A stretch of DNA of 64,000 bases from a virus. The first letter of the stretch is position 1, and the number at the start of each line of letters is the position of its first letter. The notes beneath the pieces are model-generated. The model worked only from the letters and a program-made list of their open reading frames with translations, did not search any database and was not told the DNA's origin. The DNA lies in UHGV virus genome UHGV-1374671. The stretch is one strand, 5' to 3'. The position numbers and the translations under genes are program-made. Positions 3,072 through 40,981 of this stretch are shown piece by piece.

Positions 3072-3850
3072 TCAACACGTACATCAACGACAACGTAAAC
3101 GTACCGTATCCGTTTTTCGGTATGGGGTCCCTGCCGTTCCCCATGTGCTGCATCGTCGGGTTCGGCATCTGCATTCACGGACCGCTTACCGGGCTGATCT
3201 TCATATCGTCGCTGGAGATCACCAACAGCTCGATCAAGGCTGTCGTTGTAATGGGAAGCACCATCCTGGGTACCGTGGAGTGCCGGTCGTATTCCGGAAA
3301 CAGGACTTCGGCTATCCAGGCAACGCAGTCCGACGTTCAGCTGTCAGGGTTCATGACCATCGGTGACATCCCGAAGACGGCTATCGGTCACTATGATGGG
3401 GTGTTCCCGATCGATCCGTCTTGTATAACCAACATGCCTGATGCAGTGTTCGGATACCACAGGGCTGTGGAGATCAACGGAACATCTTACACGATCGGAC
3501 AGCAGTTGGAGATCTCGGCGTCCGGTCTGTTGTCGATCTCCGGAAACACCATTCAGGGAACGAACCAGGTCACGAGCGCCAACCTGACGACGTTCGACTA
3601 CATGAACGACTACTCCATGGTGAAGACCGTAAACGGCATGTCCTTTCATCCTCACACGGAGTCCAACATACCGACGCTGACCTTCAAGACGGACTATCCT
3701 GATTGTGTGAAGTTCGACGTGATAGGCGGGGCCGGCATGCCCGAAGAAGGAGATGTGGATGAAGGCATCGGGGACGTTACGGTACTGGTGATCAATGGAA
3801 CCAAGAAGTTTCCGAACTGCTACAAGCAGGAAGATGACGAGGCCCTGTAA
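3068..3850 (+). CDS. hypothetical protein
   Basis: 260 aa ORF with ATGA start/stop overlap with previous gene. Confidence 0.45.
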   Translation: MINTYINDNVNVPYPFFGMGSLPFPMCCIVGFGICIHGPLTGLIFISSLEITNSSIKAVVVMGSTILGTVECRSYSGNRTSAIQATQSDVQLSGFMTIGDIPKTAIGHYDGVFPIDPSCITNMPDAVFGYHRAVEINGTSYTIGQQLEISASGLLSISGNTIQGTNQVTSANLTTFDYMNDYSMVKTVNGMSFHPHTESNIPTLTFKTDYPDCVKFDVIGGAGMPEEGDVDEGIGDVTVLVINGTKKFPNCYKQEDDEAL

Positions 3851-3865
3851 GGAGACCTGACAGAA

Positions 3866-4603
3866 ATGCTGAACTCATTCAACATAGACAGATCCGATTC
3901 CGAGATCAACACCAATTTCCCATTCCAGTGGCAGTGCAGGCTGCAGCTTGGATCCGTACAGCTGCCATCAGGTCTGATACGCTCCATTCGAGTGCATTGC
4001 ACGGAAGGCATACTGCCCCCTGTGAGGCTTCACAAGGTCCAGATCAACGGCGACAACGGAACGGCCGAGTTTCGTGATTCACAGGGCGTATCCGTCTGCT
4101 TCTGGAAATTTTCTTACAAGTCATCCGACACTCGTATCAGTGCGTTTCTGACGAACAGTTACAACGTGATCAGCGGACATATCGTGTGCTCGGAAGAATT
4201 GCCGGCCATGCTGTTCTCGATTGCGGCTGCCAATAATAACGAGGTGACCACAGAGAGCGACGATTTCCTGTTGCTGCCCCAGTGTCACACCTCCAGTTTG
4301 TCCGGGTACTGCAAGGCGTTCAAGATCGGTGATACTGTTTACAACAGCGATCTTACAATCAAGTCAGGTGCTTACACCAGTTCAGAATTCAAGGGCGGCG
4401 TGTACTCCATAAGCCTGCTTGGCAAATACGCAGTAGACACGGATTCCGCCATGAACAGGGACGGTATCATGCAGTTGAGCGTGAACGGTGAGACCTATTA
4501 CGTTGGTGGACGACACCTGCTTATCCGGGCGGGAATGACGTCGAACCTGAGAGTGGTGATGGCGAACTCCGCAATAACGCTGAAGGGGGTGCAGGATGAT
4601 TGA
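3866..4603 (+). CDS. hypothetical protein
   Basis: 245 aa ORF in operon context. Confidence 0.45.
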   Translation: MLNSFNIDRSDSEINTNFPFQWQCRLQLGSVQLPSGLIRSIRVHCTEGILPPVRLHKVQINGDNGTAEFRDSQGVSVCFWKFSYKSSDTRISAFLTNSYNVISGHIVCSEELPAMLFSIAAANNNEVTTESDDFLLLPQCHTSSLSGYCKAFKIGDTVYNSDLTIKSGAYTSSEFKGGVYSISLLGKYAVDTDSAMNRDGIMQLSVNGETYYVGGRHLLIRAGMTSNLRVVMANSAITLKGVQDD

Positions 4604-5330
4604 GGCTGTAAAGGATCTTGCGGTCAGCTACCCGTTTATCCCTGGAAGCACGGTGCCTGAGGCGCTGAAGCACATCAAGGACGCCAGGATCATCTTTGAG
4701 CTGCCGGCAAACACGTATCGACAAGGCGACAGCAATACGATGCAGTTCTACGCCGAGCTGGTCAGCATTGATCCGAGCAAGGCTGTGTTCCATGTTGTGT
4801 GCACACCGTTCTCGGTGGACGAGAACGTGACAGTGCCTGTCAACGTGGGAATCTTCAATGTTCCGATGGGCAACAATTACGTGCTGGTGGACGAGCCTGT
4901 GACTTATACCGGGTCTCACACGCTGCATCCGGATTGCCTGATCTTCTTCCAGAAAGCTCCCAAGCTCAGTGCGGCTGATAGGACCGCTGTACGGTCTGAT
5001 GATTCGTATTCTTCGGAAGTGTACGGTTTTGGGCCAACCATAGCCTTTGCGGACGGGTACAATGTGAACGTGTCCGGCAACGAAAGCACGGTGGTGTTCA
5101 ACGGAGGAGAAGGAAGCGGACTCGGCATCTGGCTGACGTCTCCGTGGGTCGACGTTAAGGACTCCACCTTGAGAGCCGCAGTAGGCCTTCGCACCATAAA
5201 CGGAAAGAACGGCAACGTCCAGATCAACGGAAGCCAGTCAGTCGGCGTCGAGGGTACCGGAGGCATCGAGCTGGTGATTAACCCGCTGCCTTATCCAGAA
5301 GACGATGAGGACGAAGAGGTCACCCCATGA
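4596..5330 (+). CDS. hypothetical protein with acidic C-terminus
   Basis: 244 aa ORF overlapping neighbours by 8 and 4 nt. Confidence 0.45.
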   Translation: MIEAVKDLAVSYPFIPGSTVPEALKHIKDARIIFELPANTYRQGDSNTMQFYAELVSIDPSKAVFHVVCTPFSVDENVTVPVNVGIFNVPMGNNYVLVDEPVTYTGSHTLHPDCLIFFQKAPKLSAADRTAVRSDDSYSSEVYGFGPTIAFADGYNVNVSGNESTVVFNGGEGSGLGIWLTSPWVDVKDSTLRAAVGLRTINGKNGNVQINGSQSVGVEGTGGIELVINPLPYPEDDEDEEVTP

Positions 5331-20458: not shown

Positions 20459-21736
20459 ATGAAAATTGTACTGGCCGATACAGTGATCACTGTGTTCGGG
20501 TGGCTCAATGTGATGGATCAGATCGGAAAGTACAAGCTGAAGATCCGCAAGACTCCTCAGGAGATCCGTGAGGAGAAGGAGATCAGACGACAGCGGTACG
20601 GAAGCGACGCCCATAAGGTGAATCCTATGCGGTACGAAGATCGCACCGTGATCGCCAAGAATCCGTCTGATCCTACCATCGCATACTTTCTCCCAGGGCT
20701 GTGGCCACGGGTGAAAGGCTATCTGGATACGCAGAAGATTACATACGAAATCGAGGACAAAAGGGATCCTTCCATCAGGCCTGACCCGGACTATTCAAAA
20801 CTGGCCGGAGCGACATTGAGACCAGGACAGGATACCGCCTTGGCCCTGATTACGTCGTTGGATTGTGGGCTAATAAATACCAGCACGGCATGGGGAAAAA
20901 GCCATCTAATATCTTTTATATGCAAGGTTTATCCCACGCTTAACATTGTCGTCACCACTGGATCCACCACGGTGGTCTCAACTCTGTACGAATATCTGTG
21001 CAAGCAGCTGCCCGGCCAGGTCGGTTACCTGTACGCCAGGGGCAACACCACGCATGGAAAACGGGTGATTGTGACCACGCTGAAGTCGTTGCCGAACATC
21101 TCTCCTGAGCGCGTCCAGTTGCTGTTGTGCGACGAGTGTCATGCCTGCGGAGACAACGAGGCCGGCAGGGCAGTGTCCAAGTTTGTGTTCAGCCGCAGAT
21201 TTGGATTCTCCGCCAGTCCGATCCGCAATGACGGCTCCAGAATCGTTATGGAGTCCATCTTCGGACCTGAGATCATGAAGATGACCTACCAGGAGTCTGT
21301 TGACGTTGGAAACATCGTTCCCATGAAGTACCTGATGCTGCCTTGTCACAAAGGGCCAACCAGCTTGTGCGACAAGCCGGGCATGGACGATGTATTCAAG
21401 AAGCGCTTCGGGTACTGGTGCAACTACAACAGGAACAGGGCTATTGTGGAACTGGTCTACGACATCAAGCAGGTGTATGAGGGCCAGATTTTGATAATGG
21501 TCGGTTCACTGGAACACGCAATTCAGTTGCACATTATGCTGCCCTGGTTCAAGGTCGCTCATTATGGCGCAACTGACTTGGACGAACTCAAGAAAAAGAA
21601 GTTCTCCAAAGACAAATACTCCGACATTGACTTTTCTCAGTACAAGATGAGCCAGAAGCAGCTGGACATTATGCGGGCCGCCTTTGCAAAAGGTACGCTC
21701 AGGTACGTGATCTGCACCAAAGTGTTTAAACAAGGT
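20459..21736 (+). CDS. SF2 DExH-box helicase, exon 1 (interrupted by group I intron)
   Basis: motif I TSTAWGKSH; motif II LLCDECHACG; motif III FSASP; ORF runs into a stop at 21760 before motifs V/VI, which resume in the ORF at 22024. Confidence 0.7.
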
Positions 21737-22023
21737 AAACATCAATGCCTCGCAGCATAGGAATGTGCTGTCGTGAGCCGCTTAATTGCTGGGAACTCCG
21801 ACCGGGTAATGCCGAGGACAATCAGCAGCGAAGTCCTGAAAAGTAGGAAACGTTCAACGACTATCCCTGCGGGGAGTACACGCAAGTGCGTGGAAACAGC
21901 GGCCACCCAGAACGGGTGAAGATATAGTCTGACCTTGCATGGTAACATGCAGCTGGATTAACAATCCGGGCTGAGCGTAACGAACTCAGTTGAACACAAA
22001 AGGTTGATTTTAAAGCACTTACG
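21737..22023 (+). ncRNA. group I self-splicing intron (ORF-less, ~290 nt) in helicase gene
   Basis: P/Q/R/S-like elements: TAATTGCTGGGAACTCC, AATCAGCAGCG, GTTCAACGACTATCC, GAAGATATAGTCTGACC; exon 1 ends on T (ggt); G immediately precedes exon 2. Confidence 0.7.
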
Positions 22024-22284
22024 GTGTTGTTCCGTGGAGACGGCGACGTGTCTGGTGTGGAATGTATCCAGATCCCTGGCCGAGTTGCCCGTCTGTCGGA
22101 AGGCAAGGACTGCGGTTACCTGATCGACGTCAATGACACGTTCAGCACTTGGTCCAGAGAGCGGTCACAGGCCAGAGAGAAGCAATATCAGGAGCAGAAA
22201 TGGACGAAGATAACAAGGGAGGATCTGCTGGATGATCTCCGTAGACTCACTGAAGGCAACCCTGACAGGGCTTCTGGGGAGTAG
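22024..22284 (+). CDS. SF2 helicase, exon 2 (motif VI QIPGRVAR)
   Basis: ECIQIPGRVARL matches helicase motif VI Q-x-x-G-R-x-x-R; exact 3' splice site among 22024/22027/22030 unresolved. Confidence 0.65.
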   Translation: MLFRGDGDVSGVECIQIPGRVARLSEGKDCGYLIDVNDTFSTWSRERSQAREKQYQEQKWTKITREDLLDDLRRLTEGNPDRASGE

Positions 22285-22756
22285 GGTTCCCAGTGGATTC
22301 CCGTTCGAGTTGGTTGCCAAATCCCTGTTGAAGCAGGAGAAGGCAAGGGACATCAAGCTCAGTTCCTATGGGTATCTGATGTATGCCATCGATCACTACG
22401 GCGCCGGCATCCTGTACCGGAACATACTGGCGTCCAACAAGACGATCGAGGGCTATGCAGCGGAGGCCGACAAGTACAGAACCGACATGCCTGTCATGCT
22501 GGTCAATGCGGCACAGTACGTGGAGCATATCTTCAATCTGATTCCTGACATGGAAACATGCTTCAGGAAGCTGGAGGATATGACATTCCCGTATGTGCTG
22601 TATGTGCTGTTCACAGCCGGAGGCCAAGAGGAGCTTGTCACAAAGTACAAGGAGGACTTCGAGGAGCATATGCACAGATACCCGTCCACGCTGGATCTGC
22701 TGCCTGAGTCCTATAAGAAAGTCGGTACGGAGGTCAGCGATGCAGACGTTAAGTAA
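22232..22756 (+). CDS. hypothetical protein
   Basis: 174 aa ORF between the two helicase genes. Confidence 0.4.
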   Translation: MISVDSLKATLTGLLGSRVPSGFPFELVAKSLLKQEKARDIKLSSYGYLMYAIDHYGAGILYRNILASNKTIEGYAAEADKYRTDMPVMLVNAAQYVEHIFNLIPDMETCFRKLEDMTFPYVLYVLFTAGGQEELVTKYKEDFEEHMHRYPSTLDLLPESYKKVGTEVSDADVK

Positions 22757-24215
22757 GGTTGAGCTGGCGTTCCTGTCCGTGATCGGATATCCTGAACTCA
22801 CTTCCAAGGCGCTGAAGCTGTGTGCTGACAAGGTGATCCTGTTCGATAAGAACACGCACCCTCATGTGAGCATGATGTGGTCTGTTTACCTGAACACGTT
22901 GAAGAAGTACAAGAAGAAGTTCGGGTTGAAGGTATCCCATGATCTCATTGCAGGCGACCTGGACGAGGCGATCAAGAACGACGAGGACATGCCTGAGGAG
23001 GTGTTGTCCAGTTGTGAGACCATTCTCAACCGACTGGTAACTGGTCAGCTGCCGTCCAGGGAGGAAGGCATCGCGTTGATCCAGTCTCTGGTGAACCTGG
23101 ATGCCAACCGCAAGATCAGCGCCCAGGTGCTGAAGAACGCGGATCTGGAGGCCATCCAGAAAACCCTGGATTCGTCGAAGCGGGTCATGACCATACTGGA
23201 CAACACAGAGGATCTGAACAAGGGCAGGATCCTGTTCAATCCGTTCAATGAGATCCAGAACCTGGCCAAGCACGTGGTGCGGATCCCGACAGGCATCAAC
23301 TTCCTGGACATCGCATCCAGCGGTGGAGGCCGGTCCCAGGAGCTGTGGCTTCTTCTTGGTCCGTCAGGAGGAGGCAAGTCGACGTTCTCTGTTCAGTATT
23401 CCGCATCGCAGGCTCTGATGGGCAACAATACGCTGTGGGTCACTTACGAGCAGAGCATGGAAGGAGACTTGGCCGAGCGACTTATCGCCAACGTGACGGA
23501 CTGCAGTCTGGATGACATCCGTGATATCGGGTTCGACAATTTGAGCCAGGATATCAGGAACAAGTTCTGGGCTGCTGTGAACGGCTCCGAGGAGCACCTG
23601 AAAGTGTTGGACATGACCAGAATGGAGTTCGACCAGGAAGATCCTGCCGATGACTCCGGCATCTACTCGGTATGGAAGCGCATCAAGGAGCTGAAAGCGG
23701 AGGGATGGAGCCCGAAGACGGTCCTCATAGACTGGTTCGGCGCAATGATGTCCATGATCGGAACTGTAACCGGTCAGGACTTGTCCAAGGCGTACAGGTT
23801 CCTGGCTCAGCATCAGATCGACATTGCCCGCAAGATGGTCAAGGACGAGGATATCATGTGCATCTTCACACATCAGACCGACATGCAGACACAGCATGCC
23901 AGGCCGACCTATCCTCCCGACAAGACCAACTCGAAGGACATGAAAGACCTGTGCAACTACATGGACATCGTTCTCACACTTGGAAACAGGGACAAGAACG
24001 ACATCCAGTATTTCAATGCGGCCAAAGCCCGTAAGGGCGCGTCCGTCCTGCAGACGGTGCAGCTCATTGGAGAGAAGGCCAGGTTCAAGAAAGCCGACGG
24101 CTGGCTTCCAAACCGGGATGGGAACTTCTACCGACCCTCGGATGAGTACACATCAGACGAGGACGACGATATACAAGACGAGACTGCAAGGTCGTATACA
24201 AGAGAGATCATGTAG
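22740..24215 (+). CDS. DnaB-like replicative helicase (RecA-fold ATPase)
   Basis: Walker A GPSGGGKST; Walker B-like VLIDWFGAMM; overall DnaB/gp41-like C-terminal domain layout. Confidence 0.7.
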   Translation: MQTLSKVELAFLSVIGYPELTSKALKLCADKVILFDKNTHPHVSMMWSVYLNTLKKYKKKFGLKVSHDLIAGDLDEAIKNDEDMPEEVLSSCETILNRLVTGQLPSREEGIALIQSLVNLDANRKISAQVLKNADLEAIQKTLDSSKRVMTILDNTEDLNKGRILFNPFNEIQNLAKHVVRIPTGINFLDIASSGGGRSQELWLLLGPSGGGKSTFSVQYSASQALMGNNTLWVTYEQSMEGDLAERLIANVTDCSLDDIRDIGFDNLSQDIRNKFWAAVNGSEEHLKVLDMTRMEFDQEDPADDSGIYSVWKRIKELKAEGWSPKTVLIDWFGAMMSMIGTVTGQDLSKAYRFLAQHQIDIARKMVKDEDIMCIFTHQTDMQTQHARPTYPPDKTNSKDMKDLCNYMDIVLTLGNRDKNDIQYFNAAKARKGASVLQTVQLIGEKARFKKADGWLPNRDGNFYRPSDEYTSDEDDDIQDETARSYTREIM

Positions 24216-24227
24216 TTTGGTTCGATT

Positions 24228-24256
24228 GTGACTTGACTTTTTTTCGTTTTGGTGTT
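24228..24256 (+). promoter_or_regulatory. possible sigma70-like promoter (TTGACT-17-TATGTT) followed by 10-bp hairpin GTTATGTTGC/GCAACATAAC
   Basis: hexamers and spacing read directly; hairpin at ~24250-24276 just upstream of the RBS of the 24300 gene. Confidence 0.3.
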
Positions 24257-24299
24257 ATGTTGCGAACGAGCAACATAACCTGAACGAAGGAGGTCGGTC

Positions 24300-24701
24300 A
24301 TGAAACAACCCGAGTTCGAGAAGCTCTGTAAGGATCTGGCCCGCATATGGACCAGAAAAGACGGGGCCCTGGCGAAGCTGGGCAGCTGCTCTGAGAGCAC
24401 TGGCTCGTACATCTTGTGCATCGGAGCGAAGAACAATACAGGGTTCTCCGCTCACTATTGCGTTGTGTGGGAAGGAGACAACAAGGCGTTTGAAGGCCGT
24501 CTCCATTCCATCGAACTCAGAAAATTCCTCACATCGAAACACCTCTGTTTCGCAGAGGTAACCACTTCACGCATGCTGGATCAGAACAAGAAAGGTCTGA
24601 TCAACTGCTACGGAAAGAAGGAGTCGTGCTGCAAGCTGAACTGCTCTGTACGCGACAGGAAGCCGTTCCAGGTGACTGAGACGGTGGCAACCACTCTGTA
24701 G
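24300..24701 (+). CDS. hypothetical protein (between helicase and primase; possible loader/accessory)
   Basis: 133 aa; GGAGG RBS. Confidence 0.4.
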   Translation: MKQPEFEKLCKDLARIWTRKDGALAKLGSCSESTGSYILCIGAKNNTGFSAHYCVVWEGDNKAFEGRLHSIELRKFLTSKHLCFAEVTTSRMLDQNKKGLINCYGKKESCCKLNCSVRDRKPFQVTETVATTL

Positions 24702-24747
24702 CGCTCCCGGTATTGCCGGGCAGCGTGCATGTCCGGGAGGAAAGCAA

Positions 24748-25878
24748 GTGTTGAACAAACCACTCTATGACACGCTTGTGCGCATGTTCAAGCGTGTCGA
24801 AATCGCCAACGAAGGGCAGCATGCACGGGTCAGCAGGAAAGCGGGTACCGTGTCGGCGTGGTGTATTGAAAGGAACAACGAACACGGTGAGCAGTACCGT
24901 GTGAATTGTCCTTTCTGCGACGACCGGAACAAGCACCTCTACATTTCGTATCTGTCCTACATTCGTCCAGTCGTGAACGGTCAGGTGCTTCAGGTAGGCA
25001 AATTGAGAGCCCAGTGCTTTCGCAGAGGCTGTCTGAAGAAGATTGAGAACAGAGAATGGCTCGAAGGGCAGATCGCTATGTACAGGTTAGCTCTTGGAGC
25101 AGGTGCGGAAATTCCAAACATTGAAATCTCGGAAACAGACTCGGAAACCCTTCCCAGATACGAGGTGTCGGACGACATTTCCGTGGATGGGTTCAAGACA
25201 TGGGTACCTGATTATGAGCCGATCACAGCGCAGTCCAGGAGTGACATTCTGGAGTACCTGGCGGCTCGTCGTGTGTCCATGGATGACGTGGAATGGATGA
25301 GACTCGGCTGGGGGCCTGTCAAGTCCCCGCGTTCAGGCAACTACCTGAACAACGGCAGTCCGTTCATTCTGATTCCGATGATACAGAACAACCAAGTGAA
25401 GGGCATCCAGGGCAGGTGCCTTCCCCAGTACCTGAAGGAGGACGGCATCAAATACTGGATTCACCCTGCCTGCAGAAAACGTACTGTTGTGCTGAACATC
25501 GACATTGCCAGACAGCTCGGCCTTGGTGTCGTCTGTGAAGGCGCTTTCGATGTGCTCAGCATTGGTAAACCGGGCGTATGCACCTTTGGACATACACCAT
25601 CAGAAACGCAAAGGCGGTTGCTTACCACGTTCTCACAGGGCATCATATGGTGTCCTGACACGGACGTGACGCCGAGGCTGAATCCTATTCAGATCGCCAG
25701 GGAGCATGTTGCTGTCTGGAACGCGTCCAATGCGTTTCCGAAAGGTGCGCACGTCGTAGAACTGTCCCAGAAAGATGCCGGCAGTATGTCCCGGCAGCAA
25801 GTATGGGAGGAGATCGTTTCCCAGGTTCCTGCTCATATGCAGGACTTCCTGCTGGAGAGGATCATCCCAAACCTATAG
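24748..25878 (+). CDS. DNA primase (zinc-binding + TOPRIM)
   Basis: GTG start with GGAGG RBS; N-terminal CPFCDD...C..C zinc motif; TOPRIM acidic motif VVCEGAFDVLS. Confidence 0.7.
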   Translation: MLNKPLYDTLVRMFKRVEIANEGQHARVSRKAGTVSAWCIERNNEHGEQYRVNCPFCDDRNKHLYISYLSYIRPVVNGQVLQVGKLRAQCFRRGCLKKIENREWLEGQIAMYRLALGAGAEIPNIEISETDSETLPRYEVSDDISVDGFKTWVPDYEPITAQSRSDILEYLAARRVSMDDVEWMRLGWGPVKSPRSGNYLNNGSPFILIPMIQNNQVKGIQGRCLPQYLKEDGIKYWIHPACRKRTVVLNIDIARQLGLGVVCEGAFDVLSIGKPGVCTFGHTPSETQRRLLTTFSQGIIWCPDTDVTPRLNPIQIAREHVAVWNASNAFPKGAHVVELSQKDAGSMSRQQVWEEIVSQVPAHMQDFLLERIIPNL

Positions 25879-25895
25879 GAACAGAGGAGATCGAG

Positions 25896-26921
25896 ATGCA
25901 AGACTTAGGCGTCGTCGACGTCAGCATGCGGCACTTTGTCGGGCCGGTTCACATCCGGGTATGGGAGCCCGGAGATCCGTTCCCGACACTGGGGCCTTCC
26001 GTTGGCGTTGACACAGAAACCGAGCTGATCACGGACACGGTGAAGGACCCGCCGGTAGTTGTTACCGGCGTGTTCGACCCTGCGAACTCGAATTGCTGGA
26101 TCGTTTACTGGCAGCATACCGCAGCGTTCATGCGGGAGCTGAACAAGCGCGACATCCAGCAGAGGTACTTCAACGTCGGGTTCGACGAACAGGTGCTCGA
26201 CAACGAGGACGAGGAGAAGAGCCTTCTGACGGCTGTCGACGCAAGGCGGGTGCGTGATATGCAGATCCGCATTCACCTGCACGAGATCGCCACGCTGGGT
26301 TGGATCCGAGGCAATCTGTACAACCTGGCGGACTGTGCTCTGCACTTCCTGAATGTGACGCTGGACAAGGGTGATCCGGACGACTACGAGAACTCTGCAC
26401 GAATGACGTTTCGGCGGCATAATAAAGATGGGAGCGTTTATCGCATAACGGATGAACAGGCCAAATACCTGTGTTATGACTGCGCTTCCACCTGGGGTCT
26501 CGGAGAATCGGTACCGGAACAGCCAACCGAGGTGGAACATACCAAGGGCATGATCGTCCTGGCACACATCAGCACCAACGGCATTCAGGTCGACCCTGTA
26601 GTGTTCGACGCCATGGAGGAGAAGCTGTTCAAAGCCAGGGACGAGGCCAGGCTTCGTCTGCTGGCGTTTGGATTCCCAGATCCGTACAAGGACGTCAAGA
26701 AGGAGGCCGCAGCCGAGCGTCAGCTTTTCTACTCGGAATACAAAAAGCTGTGTGAATCGGCAGGACTGGAGTGCCATCTCGGCATGGAGGAACAGACACT
26801 CGATGACGAAGACGAAACCGTCATTCAGGTTCCTAAAATACCAAAGAAGGACTCTCTCAGGCTGATGGTCTGCTACCTGTATCGATGCTTCACGTTCGTA
26901 CACAATACCAAGAACGCGGCG
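25896..26921 (+). CDS. polA: family A DNA polymerase, exon 1 (3'-5' exonuclease domain)
   Basis: Exo I VGVDTETE; Exo II/III-like YLCYDCAS; frame hits a stop at 26924 immediately before an intron core. Confidence 0.7.
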
Positions 26922-28478
26922 TAGGTACCTTTGCGGCGTGAGCCGCATCGAAGAAGAAAGTGAATTGCTGGAAGCCTAAACCGGGAGTGTAGCCCGGCAT
27001 GGTAATCAGCAGCCAATCAACCGGATCGCTAAACTGGATTCAACCATCCAGCATGCACCGGGGAAAAGGTTCAACGATCATCGGGGTGTCCACCTGATAA
27101 GCGGCCCCGTTAGCGTGCAAGCGTGCGCGAAGTGCTCCGTGACGGGAAACCGTCACGATGATATGATCTGTGCTACCCGAAAGGGATAGGAAGCCCCAGC
27201 CTGATCAGCTGGATAAGCCGGGTGAGCGTAGCGAACTCACTTGAACAAGAACCATGAGGTCTTATGAATCGACGTAAATTCTCACATTTACGCTTGATAT
27301 TGTTGACGTACATGCTATATTAGAACCAGGTACTATAATACACGGAAGTTTTGAAGTGATAAGCAGAGCTCATACAATCAAGCTGAAACCCAATAAAGCA
27401 CAGGCGATCATGCTGGCCAAGACGGCCGGTACTGCCAGGTATGCCTACAACTGGGGATTGGCCAAGTGGAATGAGCTGTACGAAGCCGGTGAGAAGTGCA
27501 GTGCTTACAGCCTGATGAAACTTTGGCAAGAAGGCAGACCTGACTGGGCATTGGAAGTGGGCGCTGCGTGTTTGCAGCGCCCGTTCATGCACCTGGAAGG
27601 CGCCTTCAAAGCGTTCTTCAGAGGACAGCGTAAGCACCCAACCTTTCACAAGAAGGGTTTGCGGGACGGGTTCTACGTCCCGAATACTCATTTCAAACTC
27701 CGTGGTAACAAGGTTCAGCTACCCAAGTGCGGACTTGTCAGAATGACCGAGCGTATTCGTTACGCGGATGTGAAGGTTGTTTCTTCGGCAGTCAAGCACC
27801 AGGCAGACGGCTGGTATGTCGTAATCCAGGTCGAGCTTGAAGAGGAACACAGAACCGAATCCGACTCTTTTGTCGGAGTCGATGTCGGATGTACCCAGCT
27901 CGCAACAGCGAGCGACGGTACGACCTGCTGCTCACCGGCCAAGCTCAAAGACCTGGAACGTCAGCTGAAACGTAGACAGCGCTTGCTGGCACGCAAAGCC
28001 AAGGGCTCCAACAATCGAGCGAAAGCGAGATTGAAGGTAGCCCGTACCTGGCAACGAATCAACAATATCAAACAAGACACAGCTCACAAGTTCACTGCAC
28101 TCATTGCCAAGAACCACGGCACTGTTTGCATTGAAAAGCTGGATGTGAAGAGTATGCAATCAGGAGACAACGCCCTCGTAAGAAAGGGCGTGCATAACTC
28201 CTGCATGTCGGAAATCCTGAGACAACTCAAGTACAAGTGTAACAACTTTATTGAAGTTGACAAGTATTTCCCGTCCAGTAAGACTTGTTCGAACTGTGGG
28301 CACATAAACGCTGAACTGACCCTTGGGGATCGCACGTATAATTGTCCGGGCTGCGGACTGAAAATCGACAGGGATCTGAACGCAGCGTTGAACCTCCGTA
28401 AGGAGGGTCTGAGGATTTACACGGTGGGTCACACCGGCAGTGCCTGTGGAGTTGCCCGGTAACGGGCGGCGCTGAAGC
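26922..28478 (+). mobile_element. IStron-like element: group I intron ribozyme core fused to an IS605-family (TnpB-only) module, inserted in the DNA polymerase gene
   Basis: ribozyme core ~26950-27290 shares P/Q/R/S elements with the helicase intron (GAATTGCTGGAAGCC, AATCAGCAGCC, GTTCAACGATCATC, GATATGATCTG); IS left-end-like hairpin CGTAAAT-tctcac-ATTTACG (~27268-27289); tnpB 27356-28462; right-end hairpin GCCCG-gtaa-CGGGC spanning the tnpB stop; the polymerase frame reopens right after a TGA at 28473-28475. Confidence 0.7.
27356..28462 (+). CDS. tnpB: TnpB (IS605 OrfB-family RuvC-like RNA-guided nuclease)
   Basis: 368 aa; RuvC-I GVDVG; CSNCG...CPGCG zinc finger; RuvC-III DRDLNAALNL. Confidence 0.85.
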   Translation: MISRAHTIKLKPNKAQAIMLAKTAGTARYAYNWGLAKWNELYEAGEKCSAYSLMKLWQEGRPDWALEVGAACLQRPFMHLEGAFKAFFRGQRKHPTFHKKGLRDGFYVPNTHFKLRGNKVQLPKCGLVRMTERIRYADVKVVSSAVKHQADGWYVVIQVELEEEHRTESDSFVGVDVGCTQLATASDGTTCCSPAKLKDLERQLKRRQRLLARKAKGSNNRAKARLKVARTWQRINNIKQDTAHKFTALIAKNHGTVCIEKLDVKSMQSGDNALVRKGVHNSCMSEILRQLKYKCNNFIEVDKYFPSSKTCSNCGHINAELTLGDRTYNCPGCGLKIDRDLNAALNLRKEGLRIYTVGHTGSACGVAR

Positions 28479-29453
28479 AGGAAGATTCATAAGAATCGTG
28501 AACAGAACCACTCGGACGAGCCTGACGAGCTCCAGCTGTGTGCCGAGAACGTCAAAATCGTGTGCGAAATGGAGAAACCGTCACTGCGGAAAGACGCCAG
28601 GAACATGTACTCGAAGCTCCTGGAGGACTACGAGATCATGGCGTTCGACCAGGCCACCAAGGGAATCGTCATGCCGTCGTTTGTGGCGCATCTGATGGAG
28701 CACTACAACAAGCAGCGTGATTCCGGAGAGGTCGCAGCAAAGGGCTACGACTTCGGAGCCGCAGTCAAGTACGCCAGCGAGTACATCGACGATCATCCTG
28801 AATGGCTGTCGAAATCCGAGCAGATAGGTCCCAGCAAATTCTTCCAGAATCATGTGAAGGGCATCATGGAGGCCAATCCGAAGCTGGAGCTGGAGACCAC
28901 TCCCAAGAGTGGGGCAGTCAAGCTGACACTCAAGGACAAGTGGCGGTTGGAGGACAACGGCATCAAGGACAAGTTCTTGGATGCTTACATTGACTTCAAT
29001 CATTGCCAGAAATATTTAAGTACCTATATGAACCGTTTGTTCATCAAAGGGGATAATCGGATACATGCCAGGTTCACAAATATTTTGCGGACCGGACGTA
29101 CCAGCTGCACCGGACCTAACTTGCAGAATTATCCCAGCAGGGACAAGGTGTTTCCGTTGAAGAACATCTTCTGTCCTTACGATGGCATGCTGTTGTGTGC
29201 TACCGACTTCTCGTTTATTGAGTTGTGTGGCTTTGCCCAGTCCTGTTACAGCAGGTTTGGGTTCAGCGTTATGCGCGACGTCATCAACGCAGGTCTGGAT
29301 CCGCACCGCTGGTTCGCAGCGGTGATGGACAAGCTGATCAAGCCGGACCTGACGCACAAGGACGACCCGAAATGGGTCGCGGAACTGAAAGGATTTTTGA
29401 AAGCAAATGTAGACGATTCAAGACGACAAAAGGCCAAAATGGCCAATTTCGGT
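28479..29453 (+). CDS. polA: family A DNA polymerase, exon 2 (fingers/palm, motifs A and start of B)
   Basis: RTGRTSCTGPNLQNYP and DFSFIELC (motif A); RRQKAKMANFG (motif B start); frame then breaks after NFG. Confidence 0.7.
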
Positions 29454-29680
29454 CGACCATCAAGGCCGAATTAAAACTGCGGAATTAAGCGGGGAACTCT
29501 CATTGAGACGATCCGAACCGAAGCCTGGAAGGGATTCCAGTCAGGGACAGAGCATACCGGCAGGGGAAGAACTCCCATCAGCCGACACGAGGCCGCAGCA
29601 ACTGGAGAAACAACTCTGGTTGAAAAGATATGCCGAGCTGTGTGGCGACATACAGAAGTGCTGGATAAAAAGCCGGCACG
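29454..29680 (+). ncRNA. putative small group I-like intron (~227 nt) splitting polA motif B
   Basis: exon ends TTCGGT; GCCGAA 12 nt downstream can form a 6-bp P1 with a G-U pair at the splice site; GAATTAAGCGGGGAACTCT resembles the P element of the other introns; AAAGATATGCC is S-like; a G at 29680 precedes an in-frame continuation ITKLFPGALGV...EEAEF. Confidence 0.5.
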
Positions 29681-30328
29681 ATAACAAAACTGTTTCCAGG
29701 AGCACTGGGTGTCAAGACTTTCTACAGGAACTGCAGGGAGTCCGGCGTACACCTGACCATGGAAGAAGCTGAATTCATGCGGGATGCGTGGATCAGCACT
29801 TTCAAGGAAATGAAGTTCCACATGAAGCCAGAGAAGTTGCGTAACTCGACAGGGTTCGGCAACCAGTTCGGCTTCAGGGACGACGAAGAAGAGTACATCG
29901 ACCCGTCCGAGCAGGACAGGCAGTTGTACAGGGCAAAATTAATTAATGGAATGGTTAGAAACAGGTGCAGTTTCAATGCGGCCTGTAATATGCAATTCCA
30001 AGGGCTCGTGGCATTTGGCGCGAAGCTGGCAGGCTGGAATCTAGTAACTCACGGATACGAACATAGAGTAGTCAATTTCGTACACGACGAATTTCTGTAC
30101 TGCCTGTATCCGGAGGAGCTCAAGGTCCACATCCCTGTCATTGAGCGCCTGATGATCGACGGGATGAGAGTTGCCATCCCGGATGTTAAAGTAGGAGTGG
30201 AATCCAGCGTCATGCGTCATTGGGACAAGAAGGCGACGGAATTCCACGACGTGAAGTGGGACGAGCAGGGAAGACCGCTCATTGAAGAGCCGCTGTTCGT
30301 CCAGAGTGTTCTCAAAATGGCCCAGTAG
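29681..30328 (+). CDS. polA: family A DNA polymerase, exon 3 (motif C, C-terminus)
   Basis: ESGVHLTMEEAEFMRDAW (post-motif-B helix); NAACNMQFQG; NFVHDEFLY (motif C HDE). Confidence 0.7.
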   Translation: MTKLFPGALGVKTFYRNCRESGVHLTMEEAEFMRDAWISTFKEMKFHMKPEKLRNSTGFGNQFGFRDDEEEYIDPSEQDRQLYRAKLINGMVRNRCSFNAACNMQFQGLVAFGAKLAGWNLVTHGYEHRVVNFVHDEFLYCLYPEELKVHIPVIERLMIDGMRVAIPDVKVGVESSVMRHWDKKATEFHDVKWDEQGRPLIEEPLFVQSVLKMAQ

Positions 30329-38070: not shown

Positions 38071-39024
38071 ATGTTCGATTTTGACATGCCGCCCCTTGAC
38101 TGGAGAACGGCATTTATCCCAAAAAAGTCAGGAGGGATGCGTAAGCTGCGAATCCCCAATGACGAGCTCAAGCGCGTTCAGCGCGACATCTTAAACTACC
38201 TGTACACTGTAAAGGAGTTGAGGCCGTCAGGCTTCGCTCACGGCTTTGTTCCGTTCAGAAGTACCTGTACAGGAGCCATGCGACATGATAGAAAGGCCGA
38301 GGTCATCCTGTGTATGGACGTACAGGATTTCTTTGACAACTTCCCGGTGGAACCGGTAAGGCAGGCCTTGCTGAATGCCCATATCGGTCGGGTTCTCACT
38401 GACAAGATCATCACAGCCTGCACCTGTGACGGGTCCTTTCCGCAAGGTGGACCGTGCAGTCCGTACCTGACCAACATCGGCATGAAGGAAGTGGACTTGT
38501 TGATCTCCGCGTATGCGGCCAACAACGGGTTCAATTACTCAAGGTATGCCGATGACATCGCCCTCAGTCGTGATCCGCATACGACAGTTCCAGAGAAGCG
38601 CAACTACAAGCACATTTTCTTCGGAGTCGAAAAGATTCTGAAGGAACGACTGGGGCTTCACCTGAAGCACAAGAAAGATCACACGATCTGGCTTCACAGC
38701 AAGAAGGCGCCCAGACGTATCACAGGTGTGGTGATCCGGAAAGACGGCACAGGCTACAACGCTCCGATGAAGATGCGCAAGCTGGGCCGTGCCATGTTGC
38801 ACCGTCTGTATCAGAGAATCTCGGACCGCAACGGTGTGGTGCTGGATTCGGACTGGGCGGACTGGAGAAAGGTGCTGGGCTATGTCCAGTATTTCGACCG
38901 TATCCGTGCTTACAGCGAACCGGAGTCCGCCACTGCGGATCCCAAGATACCGGAGAATCAATTCAACTATATGGCAGCCAGATTTGGCATGAAGAGGAGA
39001 ACAAACAATGAAAACATACAGTGA
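38071..39024 (+). CDS. reverse transcriptase, retron-type (no maturase/endonuclease domains)
   Basis: FIPKKSGGMRKLRIP (RT1/2); HGFVPFRSTCTGAMRH; LCMDVQDFFDNF (motif A, retron-like DFF); FPQGGPCSPYLTNI (motif B'); YSRYADDIALS (YADD); RRITGVVIR (retron VTG-like); N-terminal patterning close to retron-Ec86 RT. Confidence 0.8.
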   Translation: MFDFDMPPLDWRTAFIPKKSGGMRKLRIPNDELKRVQRDILNYLYTVKELRPSGFAHGFVPFRSTCTGAMRHDRKAEVILCMDVQDFFDNFPVEPVRQALLNAHIGRVLTDKIITACTCDGSFPQGGPCSPYLTNIGMKEVDLLISAYAANNGFNYSRYADDIALSRDPHTTVPEKRNYKHIFFGVEKILKERLGLHLKHKKDHTIWLHSKKAPRRITGVVIRKDGTGYNAPMKMRKLGRAMLHRLYQRISDRNGVVLDSDWADWRKVLGYVQYFDRIRAYSEPESATADPKIPENQFNYMAARFGMKRRTNNENIQ

Positions 39025-40981
39025 ACTCCTGCAGGAAGCCTGGGACGCCGACCGGGACTACTACGTCCTGGACAAGCCCACGCTCACCGACGAGGAGTAC
39101 GACAAACTCATTCGCAGCATAGAGGCCTATGAGATGCAGCACCCGGACGAGATCGATCCCAACAGCCCGACTCAGCGCATCGGCGGCAAGGTCTCAGGCG
39201 CGTTCCAGAAGGTAAAGCATCCGCAGAAGATGTTAAGCCTGAACAACGCGTTCACGCTGACAGAGCTTCAGCTGTTCGCCACCAAGGCCAACAGGACGGC
39301 GCCAGATGGTGTGACGTTCCTGGTGGAGCCGAAGCTGGACGGGCTCACGTTGGTCTGCTTCTACGAGGAAGGAAAGCTGATCAGGGCGGTAACCCGTGGC
39401 AACGGCGTAGAAGGAGAGGACGTCACCGCGACAGCCAGGACGATCCGCAATCTTCCGTTGACAGTTCCGTATGCCGAATCGTTCCAGGTGCGCGGCGAGT
39501 GCGTCATGCCCATCCAGGTGTTCATGGAGCTGAATGCGAAACTGACGGACGCCGGTGAGGAACCGTTCGCCAATCCCAGGAACGCGGCTGCCGGCAGCAT
39601 TCGGCAGAAGGATCCGGCATTGGCTGCCGAGCGCAGGTTGTCCGTGTGCTTCTACGATCTCATCAACGGACCGGCAGACCGGATTTATACTGAATCCGAC
39701 AAGCTGGACTGGATGGAGGAGATCGGACTGCCCACCGTGAGATCAGCGTCCGAGGCGTTCGAGGACATCGAGGGCGCCTTCGAGTTCTGCACCCAGTGTG
39801 GAAAGGTTCGCTCCGATATGCCTATCGAAATCGACGGCATGGTTATCAAGGTGAATCGCATCTTCGTACAGGACAAGATGGGAGTCGGAACCAAGTTCCC
39901 GAACTGGGCCGTGGCTTATAAGTTCCCTGCGGAGCACAAGGCGACCAGCCTGACCTCAGTCGAGTGGCAGGTGGGGCGCACCGGAAAGGTGACTCCCGTG
40001 GCAGTGGTGGACGCCGTCAACATGAACGGCATCTTGCTCACTCACGCCAGCCTTCACAACCCGGCCTACATTGAAGCCCTGGACCTTCGTATCGGGGACA
40101 AGGTGACGGTGTACAAGGCGGCTGAGATCATCCCGCAGGTAGGCACGGTACTGGAACACGGCGACGGGCAGAAGGTGAAGATCGCGGATCAGTGTCCCAG
40201 CTGCGGAACCAAACTGGTGCAGGACGGTGCCGATCTCATGTGCACGAATCCGAAGTGCATTGGACGCCTGGTCACCTGGCTGTACTATTTCGGAGCCAGG
40301 GCCAACATGTACATCAAGGGTCTCGGTGTTGCCGTTATCAAGCAGCTGGTGGACTCAGGTATGTGCAAGGATCCTGCAGATCTGTACGCGCTGACCAGGG
40401 ATCAGCTGCTGAAGCTGGACGGGTTCAGCGACAAGAAAGCTGACTCGCTGCTGGCCTCCATCCAGGAGTCCAAGGCGCGTCCGTACCACAGAGTGCTCGC
40501 ATCCCTGGGCATCGAGATGCTGGGCGATTCCACTGCCGTTGACGTGGCTGCCCAATTTCCCACCATGGAGGCCCTTCTGGCTGCGACTGTGTCCGACCTG
40601 ATGGAAATACCTGGGATCGCACAAAAGACAGCCACAGCGATCTATGCGGGCCTGCATGACGATTCCATGGAGGACATCATAACCAGACTCGGAAAACAGG
40701 GTCTGTCGATGGTCAGCGAGTCGTCCAAGGAGCCGCAGACGCTGTCCGGGCTTTCCATCTGCATCACCGGAACTCTCACCAGGGATCGTGATTCCTACAA
40801 GGACGAGATCCAGTCGCATGGTGGAAAATTCGCAACCTCGGTGTCATCCAAGACCAGCTACCTGGTCGTAGGCGAGAACGTTGGTGAAACAAAACTGACA
40901 AAAGCAAGGAAGCTCGGCATCCCGATGATATCGGAGGACCAGCTTCAGGAGTTGATCAAACATGGAAAACAACAAAATTGA
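39008..40981 (+). CDS. ligA: NAD-dependent DNA ligase (LigA), full length with C-terminal BRCT
   Basis: EPKLDGL (KxDG adenylation lysine); RGNGVEGEDVT; OB, Zn (CPSCGTKL...C..C), HhH and BRCT regions; start overlaps RT stop by 17 nt. Confidence 0.9.
   Translation: MKTYSELLQEAWDADRDYYVLDKPTLTDEEYDKLIRSIEAYEMQHPDEIDPNSPTQRIGGKVSGAFQKVKHPQKMLSLNNAFTLTELQLFATKANRTAPDGVTFLVEPKLDGLTLVCFYEEGKLIRAVTRGNGVEGEDVTATARTIRNLPLTVPYAESFQVRGECVMPIQVFMELNAKLTDAGEEPFANPRNAAAGSIRQKDPALAAERRLSVCFYDLINGPADRIYTESDKLDWMEEIGLPTVRSASEAFEDIEGAFEFCTQCGKVRSDMPIEIDGMVIKVNRIFVQDKMGVGTKFPNWAVAYKFPAEHKATSLTSVEWQVGRTGKVTPVAVVDAVNMNGILLTHASLHNPAYIEALDLRIGDKVTVYKAAEIIPQVGTVLEHGDGQKVKIADQCPSCGTKLVQDGADLMCTNPKCIGRLVTWLYYFGARANMYIKGLGVAVIKQLVDSGMCKDPADLYALTRDQLLKLDGFSDKKADSLLASIQESKARPYHRVLASLGIEMLGDSTAVDVAAQFPTMEALLAATVSDLMEIPGIAQKTATAIYAGLHDDSMEDIITRLGKQGLSMVSESSKEPQTLSGLSICITGTLTRDRDSYKDEIQSHGGKFATSVSSKTSYLVVGENVGETKLTKARKLGIPMISEDQLQELIKHGKQQN

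Follow-up and report, generated by a model that had tools for sequence, protein, structure and literature searches.

A probable IS200/IS605-type IStron without tnpA in the family A DNA polymerase gene of a large uncultured phage

The 64,000-nucleotide stretch of the virus genome UHGV-1374671 that was analysed here (the window) raises the question of what interrupts its family A DNA polymerase gene and whether the parts still make up one gene. The polymerase frame is closed by a TAG codon (26922-26924) and reopens past a TGA codon (28473-28475), the polymerase being distributed over three open reading frames (ORFs; 25803-26924, 28560-29474, and 29759-30328) with an ORF of 368 amino acids (27356-28462) between the first two. 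An original prediction, made from the window sequence, had placed an IStron here, i.e. a chimera of a group I ribozyme and an IS605-type tnpB gene. The present analysis supports an element of this kind, as positions 26883-28505 (1,623 nt) very probably represent a non-autonomous IS200/IS605-type IStron without tnpA that is at once an intron and a mobile unit (Table 1). Indeed, the published definition of an IStron, namely a 5' group I ribozyme, a downstream tnpB, a 3' omega RNA over the splice site, ends that are the splice sites, and occurrence at many unrelated sites (PMC4227781, PMC10690162), matches the architecture found, and published IStron biology supports the assignment (PMC10690162, PMC4227781, PMC13565253).

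The borders of the element (26882/26883 and 28505/28506) follow from the alignment of polymerase homologues, two empty alleles, the breakpoints of similarity among copies, and the Rfam alignment, which puts the splice-site U at 26882. With the joined polymerase as query, a search retrieved many uninterrupted homologues of about 860 amino acids, for example P0001 and P0003 (61-62% identity), as well as P0002, a 92% identical relative encoded on contig L001. In a protein alignment, all three read ...LRLM(I/L)CYLY-NHSD..PDEL... across the joint, whereas the window frame continues after CYLY with 14 intron-encoded residues and a stop, and carries ten extra residues before NHSD. The insertion separates the Tyr codon from the Asn codon in ...CYLY^NHSD... 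(carets mark joints throughout). At the DNA level, L001 matches the window from 24214 to 26875 and from 28506 to 29223 with 7 bases in between, indicating that it lacks exactly 26883-28505; its empty site shows no target duplication. A second relative, L106, has an uninterrupted gene too, with the same codon empty and exactly the same positions missing. The 5' splice site was thus placed after T26882 and the 3' splice site after G28505. The original prediction had recognised that the frame stops and reopens, but the borders it gave, 26924 and 28479, are ORF limits, the exon borders being 26882 and 28506; the comparison with related phages free of the insertion, which it had proposed, is among the results that defined the ends.

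Related copies are numerous. TnpB has more than 6,000 database relatives, many of them on contigs of 110-200 kb with several per contig; among the matches listed at 68-88% identity, almost all are 350-384 amino acids long, most of them exactly 368. Scans of IMG/VR and metagenomes yielded about 100 loci, and two phage contigs (190 and 194 kb) carry four copies each. The likeness of the window copy to copies at other sites starts at its first base (26883) and stops at its last (28505), beyond which every locus differs, and more than 35 distinct 3' flanks occur among relatives whose TnpB is at least 49% identical. Of the 42 distinct copies at this identity with enough upstream sequence, 33 have a full ribozyme directly upstream, 2 a partial one, and 7 none. 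Exact excision restores long reading frames at most sites. The copy in L004 interrupts a gene of a second polymerase family, its junction (...FLEAY^VAYKH...) aligning to conserved residues; that in L039 was found in the same polymerase family, at ...RTARTG^; and L007 and L015 carry copies at two different codons of one 231-amino-acid gene. In addition, the Tyr^Asn codon itself is polymorphic among relatives (empty in L001 and L106, occupied in L003). At the sequence level, the element is a discrete unit, its ends coinciding with the predicted splice sites and with the points where the similarity of copies stops.

As had been predicted, the 5' part contains a group I ribozyme core. A relaxed-threshold search gave an RF00028 match at 26873-27189 (26.3 bits, E = 0.002), and the sister copies L014, L015, and L016 exceed the RF00028 gathering score (51-64 bits). 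Covariation, assessed on 24 distinct copies aligned from 12 nt of exon to position 27250, was far above controls: RNAalifold predicted 91 pairs, 55 of which changed on both sides, and an 88-pair version had standard pairs in 97.1% of the cells versus 35-41% with the partner slid by 1-3 columns, with a covariation score of 0.572 versus 0.06-0.09 after sliding and none of 500 shuffles as high. The helices comprise P1, a long P1 extension, P2, P4/P5, P6, P7, P8, P9, and P9.1. Two covarying hairpins between P7 and P8 resemble P7.1/P7.2, as in subgroup IA, and an extra P9.2-like covarying hairpin was seen by eye. In P1, GGUAC is paired with the GUAU at the end of exon 1 and with the base that opens the intron, G26925 pairing with U26882 (the splice-site U.G wobble) and G26924 with C26883. 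The U.G and C-G pairs are each present in 24 of 24 copies and the remaining three pairs covary; the stop codon of the exon-1 ORF overlaps the site of the guide sequence. The intron-terminal G (G28505 here) occurs in all copies. The long hairpin in the P1 loop is a possible transposon left-end hairpin. A derivative in L030 (2317-3645) has kept the first 76 intron nucleotides (P1, the long hairpin, and P2), tnpB, and the 3' end, the whole catalytic core being gone, and is still positioned after GTAT, which suggests that the first ~76 nt may serve as the transposon left end.

The only ORF within the intron is tnpB; no LAGLIDADG, GIY-YIG, HNH, or His-Cys box gene lies inside. The expected full TnpB was recovered, with the Pfam domains HTH_OrfB_IS605 (helix-turn-helix), OrfB_IS605, and Cas12f1-like_TNB (zinc ribbon) above cut-offs over its full length, and with a full-length alignment to the ISDra2 TnpB structures 8BF8, 8EXA, and 8H1J (E = 1.6e-44). 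The N-terminal HTH/WED-REC region is present too. In all 26 copies examined, TnpB is 367-368 amino acids long, and neither the catalytic RuvC residues D176, E260, and D340 nor the four zinc-binding cysteines vary; dN/dS amounts to 0.09-0.18. As judged from these comparisons, TnpB is intact and under purifying selection. Only about 100 nt separate the ribozyme from tnpB, leaving no room for tnpA. This interval holds a predicted promoter, whose hexamers are conserved among other copies, and a small hairpin, at the position of which most other copies have a palindrome (CTCTTGAAGA...TCTTCAAGAG) marking the left-end region of an intron-less IS form. Subterminal hairpins bracketing tnpB had been foreseen and were found (27273-27292 and 28484-28497), but the left end of the mobile unit is the 5' end of the intron rather than the hairpin upstream of tnpB. 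A conserved internal sequence, TGAACAAG^AACCATGAGG (27237-27254), resembles the 3' junction GTGAACAG^AACCACTCGG (28498-28515) and the end of an intron in the helicase gene of the window (TTGAACACAAAAG^). An ORF-less intron may originally have had its 3' splice site here and have been fused to the IS at this point, or the likeness may be due to chance; the conserved internal AAG^AACCA(C/T)GAGG might derive from exon 2 of the polymerase (CAG^AACCACTCGG), a 6-nt match that could be due to chance and is partly IS left end.

The 3' part has the layout of an IS605 omega RNA, with a guide that would be drawn from the flank, here the start of exon 2. The scaffold is composed of hairpins at 28393-28407, 28422-28436, 28443-28481 (a bipartite stem with the tnpB stop codon in its loop), and 28484-28497, followed by an 8-nt tail (GTGAACAG), the last G of which is the intron-terminal G at the 3' splice site. 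In the 32 distinct copies aligned, standard pairs fill 99.6% of the cells versus 38-54% after sliding, and the covariation score is 0.477 versus 0.04-0.11, a value that none of 500 shuffles reached; several of the compensatory changes fall within the tnpB coding sequence. A covarying omega-RNA-like scaffold thus runs to the 3' splice site, in line with the overlap of guide RNA and intron 3' end that the original prediction had proposed. The 3' flank differs at every insertion site, and the predicted guide was given 16 nt, a length assumed from ISDra2. No omega-RNA family of Rfam matched the element. A weak mir-67 match to a hairpin at 24228-24303 was judged a chance hit, and the one sequence with which the GTGAACAG tail might form a pseudoknot, TGTTC within the codons of the zinc finger, was rejected as not conserved. 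Solo omega-RNA/right-end modules of about 107 nt that end in ...GTGAACAG, with no adjacent tnpB, were encountered as well (L006 2612-2718, L048 4606-4712, L035 2286-2395, and L032 339-427). Those of L006 lie within an array of tRNA genes, and the L006 and L048 solo copies share their downstream flank; such modules could be guide-only satellites or remnants.

Table 1. Positions of the IStron, its parts, and the polymerase exons in the window
Feature	Positions	Strand	Evidence
Polymerase exon 1, 3'-5' exonuclease part, ending ...C-Y-L-Y (taT)	25896..26882	+	Alignment to P0001, P0003, and P0002; DNA alignment to L001; start codon chosen from homologues beginning MQDLG
GTAT, last 4 nt of exon 1 and exon strand of P1, predicted transposon-adjacent motif (TAM)	26879..26882	+	Co-variation of 4-mer, guide sequence, and TnpB
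Whole IStron	26883..28505	+	Empty sites in L001 and L106; similarity to copies at other sites from 26883 to 28505
Group I ribozyme	26883..27250	+	RF00028 match and covariation
Long hairpin in P1 loop (P1 extension), conserved TACACA loop motif	26887..26922	+	11 pairs, 9 changed on both sides
Internal guide sequence GGTAC	26924..26928	+	Rfam alignment, P1 pair counts
Small hairpin CGTAAAT/ATTTACG	27273..27292	+	Alignment with intron-less L006, L008, and L010
Predicted sigma-70-like promoter, TTGATA / 16-nt spacer / TATATT with TG	27294..27321	+	10/12 matches
tnpB, 368 amino acids, GTG start (ATG in most relatives)	27356..28462	+	Pfam and ISDra2 homology
Omega-RNA-like scaffold	28393..28505	+	Covariation, 32 distinct copies
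Predicted omega-RNA guide, first 16 nt of exon 2, AACCACTCGGACGAGC	28506..28521	+	Deduced (PMC10690162, PMC10097598)
Polymerase exon 2, N-H-S-D... to ...A-N-F-G (motif B)	28506..29453	+	Homologue and L001 alignments
Second ORF-less intron, 239 nt, in polymerase motif B, outside the IStron	29454..29692	+	Protein alignment ANFG^FPGALG; L003 lacks the 239 nt
Polymerase exon 3	29693..30328	+	ORF, domain and homologue alignment

The four exon bases in front of the element vary together with parts of both the ribozyme and TnpB. In the 24 aligned copies, seven such 4-mers occur, and changes in the 4-mer are always matched by compensating changes in the guide sequence (Table 2). In ISDra2, the TAM TTGAT is contacted by Y52, S56, K76, F77, Q80, T123, and N124 of TnpB (PMC10097598). 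These positions align here to Y51 and S52, to A70, A71, and Q74, and to P109 and N110, and the three segments that contain them change in step with the flanking 4-mer. In five representatives with a mean identity of 77%, residues 69-75 form the most variable window of seven amino acids (identity 0.23), residues 49-55 the second (0.43), and residues 108-114 the fourth (0.47). Moreover, the GTAT group keeps the residues that read -2A and -1T in ISDra2 (Q80 and Y52), and the residue aligned to K76, which reads -3G in ISDra2, is Ala here, where position -3 is T. This concentration of change in the motif-reading segments argues for selection on specificity, GTAT being the predicted TAM of the window copy. 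The intron-less copies of L008 (GGAT^CCACG) and L010 (GAGT^TTAAATT) follow the same rule, indicating that the motif is not only a splicing requirement; in the intron-less L006, the left boundary is ambiguous (GGTC or AGGT) and the rule is less clear.

Table 2. Exon 4-mers, ribozyme guide sequences, and TnpB residues of the IStron copies (main pattern per group; single residues vary in a few copies)
Exon 4-mer	Guide sequence	TnpB 51-52	TnpB 69-75	TnpB 109-112
GTAT	GGTAC	YS (YG in two copies)	GAACLQR	PNTH
GGAT	GGTCC	YM	YNGSARK	SNDK
GGTT	GGACC	YM	FSGAGFK	SNDK
GAAT	GGTTC	ME	YRGSQTT	DSFH
GAGT	GGCTC	ME	YRGSQTT	DSFH
CTAT	GGTAG			
GTGT	GGCAC	YK	FSGSPRK	DNQH

By analogy with characterised IStrons and IS605 elements (PMC10690162, PMC13565253, PMC10055086), the parts may work together as follows. 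Transcripts from the polymerase promoter would fold the ribozyme, splice 26882 to 28506, and give back a polymerase of about 860 amino acids, so that an essential gene could tolerate the insertion. Transcription from the internal promoter would leave out the ribozyme and yield TnpB and an unspliced omega RNA with the first ~16 nt of exon 2 as guide; this promoter may thus be a simple source of unspliced guide RNA. The TnpB-omega RNA complex would recognise GTAT followed by AACCACTCGGACGAGC, a combination present only in the intron-less allele, the resident copy being protected because its target is preceded by ACAG and not by GTAT. Cleavage of the intron-less allele of a co-infecting relative, followed by repair from the occupied allele, would copy the element in, i.e. 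RNA-guided intron homing. The spread to new sites beside the same 4-mer may depend on a Y1 TnpA that acts in trans and is encoded by the host or some other element; this is the likeliest candidate, and the covarying 5' hairpin (kept in L030) and the subterminal 3' hairpin would suit it. Alternatively, it may occur by reverse splicing guided by the 4-5-nt pairing.

The distribution of alleles bears on homing. The element of L003 is about 85% identical to that of the window and occupies the same Tyr^Asn codon, and the polymerase exons are there only patchily similar (75-84%), a pattern that homing between diverged phages would be expected to produce. The empty alleles read TTAC^AACCATTCGGACGCGC (L001) and GTAC^AACCATTCGGATGCTC (L106) at the joint. 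Both have TAC^, with C at position -1, followed by AACCAT..., and the two occupied alleles have TAT^AAC.... Furthermore, the last nine bases of L001 ahead of the joint contain three synonymous differences, against about 95% identity over the rest of the gene. These differences would fit either an escape from TnpB and insertion or a co-conversion of the flank upon arrival of the element, which, with two alleles, is only suggestive.

A more ambitious proposal, considered possible but unlikely, is that the phage IStrons form a self-sufficient mobile system needing no transposase of their own. The 4-nt motif would be read in three ways, by the ribozyme guide sequence as RNA, by TnpB residues as protein, and by whatever inserts the DNA, and the three appear to have diverged in concert, at least five specificities having arisen. 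Without TnpA, the element might reach other sites through reverse splicing into transcripts at 4-5-nt guide matches and subsequent copying by a phage reverse transcriptase such as the retron-type one encoded at 38071-39024, each new insertion being fixed by the RNA-guided homing of TnpB. In addition to homing, TnpB would serve as a weapon that cuts essential genes of co-infecting intron-less relatives. Much less likely still is a nested arrangement of independent elements, in which a TnpB-bearing IS hit an ordinary group I intron near its 3' end, the parts neither work nor move together, and TnpB plays no role in the spread of the intron. Intron-less IS copies with their own left-end palindrome do exist (L006, L008, and L010), and a related ribozyme core is combined with a GIY-YIG endonuclease instead of TnpB in L001, indicating that the fusion arose from separate parts; also, TGAACAAG (27237-27244) is similar to GTGAACAG, the actual 3' end, and to the terminus of the ORF-less intron in the helicase gene. 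However, ribozyme and tnpB are adjacent in the same arrangement in 33 of the 42 usable copies, similarity at unrelated sites runs from the first base of the intron to the right end of the IS, and splicing has to end at this right end if the polymerase frame is to be restored. The window copy, moreover, has lost the internal IS palindrome and yet has close relatives at several sites. The chances are slimmer again for a naturally split polymerase, with an exonuclease half (25803-26924) and a separate polymerase half around 1.6 kb of unspliced intergenic mobile DNA. Such a split would account for the in-frame stop that ends exon 1 14 codons past the joint, but the first in-frame start after the element is GTG at 28560, at the cost of 18 residues that match the homologues (NHSDEPDELQLCAENVKI). 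Uninterrupted homologues of about 860 amino acids are common, the ribozyme, including the exon-pairing P1, has been kept by compensatory change, and the element interrupts many other genes, the frame of which is restored on exact removal. Hardly any weight, as for the split polymerase, is given to a decaying relic of which the ribozyme still splices, TnpB and its RNA being inactive and inheritance vertical only. The missing tnpA and the case of CseIStron-1, which combines high splicing with undetectable DNA cleavage (PMC13521648), would fit a relic, whereas the 367-368-amino-acid ORF with its catalytic triad and zinc-binding cysteines kept in all 26 copies, a dN/dS of about 0.1, and omega-RNA helices preserved by compensatory changes would not. 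Neither would the restriction of fast change in TnpB to the motif-reading segments, the remainder being conserved, nor the presence/absence polymorphism at the same codon among relatives.

A tnpA-less IStron remains the best explanation, and the following points weigh against it. The window ribozyme stays below the RF00028 gathering score (26.3 versus 50 bits), P3 could not be assigned in the 24-copy alignment, since both candidate strands are invariant, and no consistent P10 pairing of the guide sequence with exon 2 was found here or at other sites. The comparison of the 70 window ORFs of at least 70 amino acids with Pfam and PHROGs revealed no transposase family; the best 25 of 30 families were inspected and the others had E > 1e-4, so that a genuine Y1 transposase hidden among them is unlikely. 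The missing tnpA leaves the element without a transposase of its own that could carry it to new sites. Both the length of the guide and a cleavage of empty alleles are assumptions by analogy with ISDra2 and the Clostridium botulinum IStron. In L036 and L040, one 4-mer is combined with the TnpB type of another group, so that either these copies are recombinants, as is to be expected from the module shuffling between copies that the helices display, or the TAM rule has exceptions. Common descent of linked parts could account for some of the association of 4-mer and TnpB. Finally, splicing, omega-RNA maturation, DNA cleavage, and transposition are all predictions from sequence.

The window contains two further introns, which the original prediction had regarded as ORF-less relatives of the same intron. 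Both are real (21737-22002 and 29454-29692), but neither was detected by a profile of the IStron family and they are not close relatives of it. The first, with an RF00028 match at 21727-21952 (88 bits), splits an SNF2/ResIII-type helicase gene, exon 1 of which extends from 20459 to 21736 and ends in ...KQG, exon 2 probably corresponding to 22003-22284. The near identity of its core to that of the polymerase intron did not hold, as only short universal core elements and one 34-nt patch (21963-21996 versus 27215-27247, 88%) are shared; the idea of one intron present three times was rejected, since neither BLAST nor an nhmmer profile of the IStron ribozyme found a second copy in the window. The intron in polymerase motif B had no Rfam match even at E = 10. 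Its positions 29621-29689 (69 nt) are about 81% identical to records of Staphylococcus phages (6ec, vB_SepS_BE02, and others), at the terminase large subunit gene where annotated, and this patch was the only match in a search of cultured-phage records with the polymerase region. The ribozyme had no match among cultured-phage nucleotide records, and TnpB homologues from cultured phages reach at most 36% identity. At the motif-B site, L001 has a larger version of the intron that contains an ORF. The same contig, which is from the closest relative, has at 3380-4610 an intron in polymerase motif A (DFSFIE^) with a GIY-YIG endonuclease gene in place of tnpB. Its ribozyme core is 78% identical to the IStron core (window 26954-27073), indicating that one ribozyme lineage has been paired with two kinds of nuclease; in all, the polymerase clade has at least four intron sites.

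The polymerase gene belongs to a replication module with an SbcCD-like pair, an SNF2/ResIII helicase, a DnaB-like helicase, and a primase, and, farther along, an NAD-dependent ligase, dUTPase, ThyX, and RNase H. The DnaB/KaiC-like helicase ORF (22593-24215) is preceded by an overlapping ORF of 174 amino acids in another frame (22232-22756). In the same module of L106 (1-1322), a DnaB-like helicase upstream of the primase contains an intein (Pfam Hom_end_hint and Hom_end). The window further encodes a reverse transcriptase of 317 amino acids (38071-39024; Pfam RVT_1, E = 1.5e-21, YADD motif) with a retron-like ...RRITGVVI... motif near its C-terminus, the ORF lying in the replication module directly upstream of, and overlapping, the NAD-dependent DNA ligase gene (39008-40981). 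Pfam matches to ThiF (E1-like, E = 3.9e-8) and Prok-E2_D (E = 3.1e-5) suggest a phage-encoded ubiquitin-like conjugation pair.

Classically, phage group I introns owe their spread to protein homing endonucleases, by which each intron is confined to one site. In the present family, an RNA-guided nuclease would occupy the slot of the endonuclease, its guide being the adjoining sequence, which would explain one intron family in dozens of genes. The genes colonised in this clade of large phages include DNA polymerase genes at three different positions. With TnpBs that are on average ~77% identical and five motif types, the family offers a natural series for the evolution of TnpB motif specificity, and it allows the published conflict between splicing and guide-RNA formation to be tested in a lytic-phage setting. 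For annotation, 'split' phage polymerases with a 'transposase' between the halves should probably be regarded as a single spliced gene.

The description of IStrons in Clostridioides difficile dates from 2000 and a survey of them from 2014 (PMC4227781); how TnpB, omega RNA, and splicing act on one another was worked out in 2023-2026 (PMC10690162, PMC13521648). The element resembles the IStrons of C. difficile (CdISt1/CdiIStrons; group A, IS200/IS605) in its 5' ribozyme, which has extra hairpins after P7 and may belong to subgroup IA2 of IStron ribozymes, and an ISDra2-like tnpB downstream, in splice sites that are the element ends, in a last exon base T paired with G in P1, and in a target specificity confined to the 5' side, the lack of target duplication, and a 3' end ...CAG. 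Many copies of these IStrons have no working TnpA (PMC4227781, PMC10690162), a TnpB-only state as found here; published C. difficile IStrons, with no full tnpA, have nevertheless kept fragments of it (PMC10690162), whereas the present element has no tnpA remnant at all. It further differs in its host, a large uncultured phage with replication genes among the targets, in its target motif, a 4-mer (GTAT, GGAT, GGTT, GAAT, GAGT, CTAT, or GTGT) instead of a T-rich pentamer (TTGAT, ATTAT, or TTTAT), and in its 3' end, ACAG instead of TCAG. With CboIStron and CbISt3/CbISt4 (group B, IS607), it shares the chimeric build of group I intron, tnpB, and omega RNA; in that group, splicing and guide-RNA formation compete for one 3' end (PMC4227781, PMC10690162). 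Those elements have a serine TnpA, insertion after GG (TGGG), a G-C pair at the 5' splice site, and a CGG end, unlike the U.G pair and the IS605-type TnpB found here. The original prediction had called an IStron in a phage polymerase unusual, and it is uncommon, but the 2014 survey had reported two IS607-type IStrons, CbISt3 and CbISt4, in the C. botulinum phages c-st and D-1873 (PMC4227781), a precedent for IStrons in phage genomes.

Similarly, ISDra2 (IS200/IS605) shares the full-length TnpB homology, although its TnpB is only distantly related, as well as the RuvC triad, the zinc finger, a TAM directly 5' of the left end, and a structured RNA that overlaps the 3' end of tnpB and takes its guide from the flank (PMC10097598). 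In contrast to the present element, ISDra2 encodes TnpA, is free of a ribozyme, and has TTGAT as its TAM. Phage homing introns (T4 td/I-TevI, Twort, and the SPO1 polymerase intron) are likewise self-splicing, as is predicted here, reside in essential genes of DNA metabolism, are polymorphic for presence, and carry an endonuclease gene with its own promoter; spread through double-strand-break repair during co-infection is predicted in the present case as well. The difference lies in an endonuclease that would be guided by RNA, so that each new insertion would bring the guide for its own site, which fits the many unrelated sites, whereas a protein endonuclease ties its intron to one site. The element had no nucleotide likeness to any phage record searched, and in the open-access texts searched no description was found of an IStron family in large phages or of a natural co-variation of motif, guide sequence, and TnpB residues. 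The element is part of a large phage-borne clade of a known kind of IStron, the architecture of which will not surprise a specialist; what is new lies in its phage host, in how many sites it occupies, and in the co-variation of three features.

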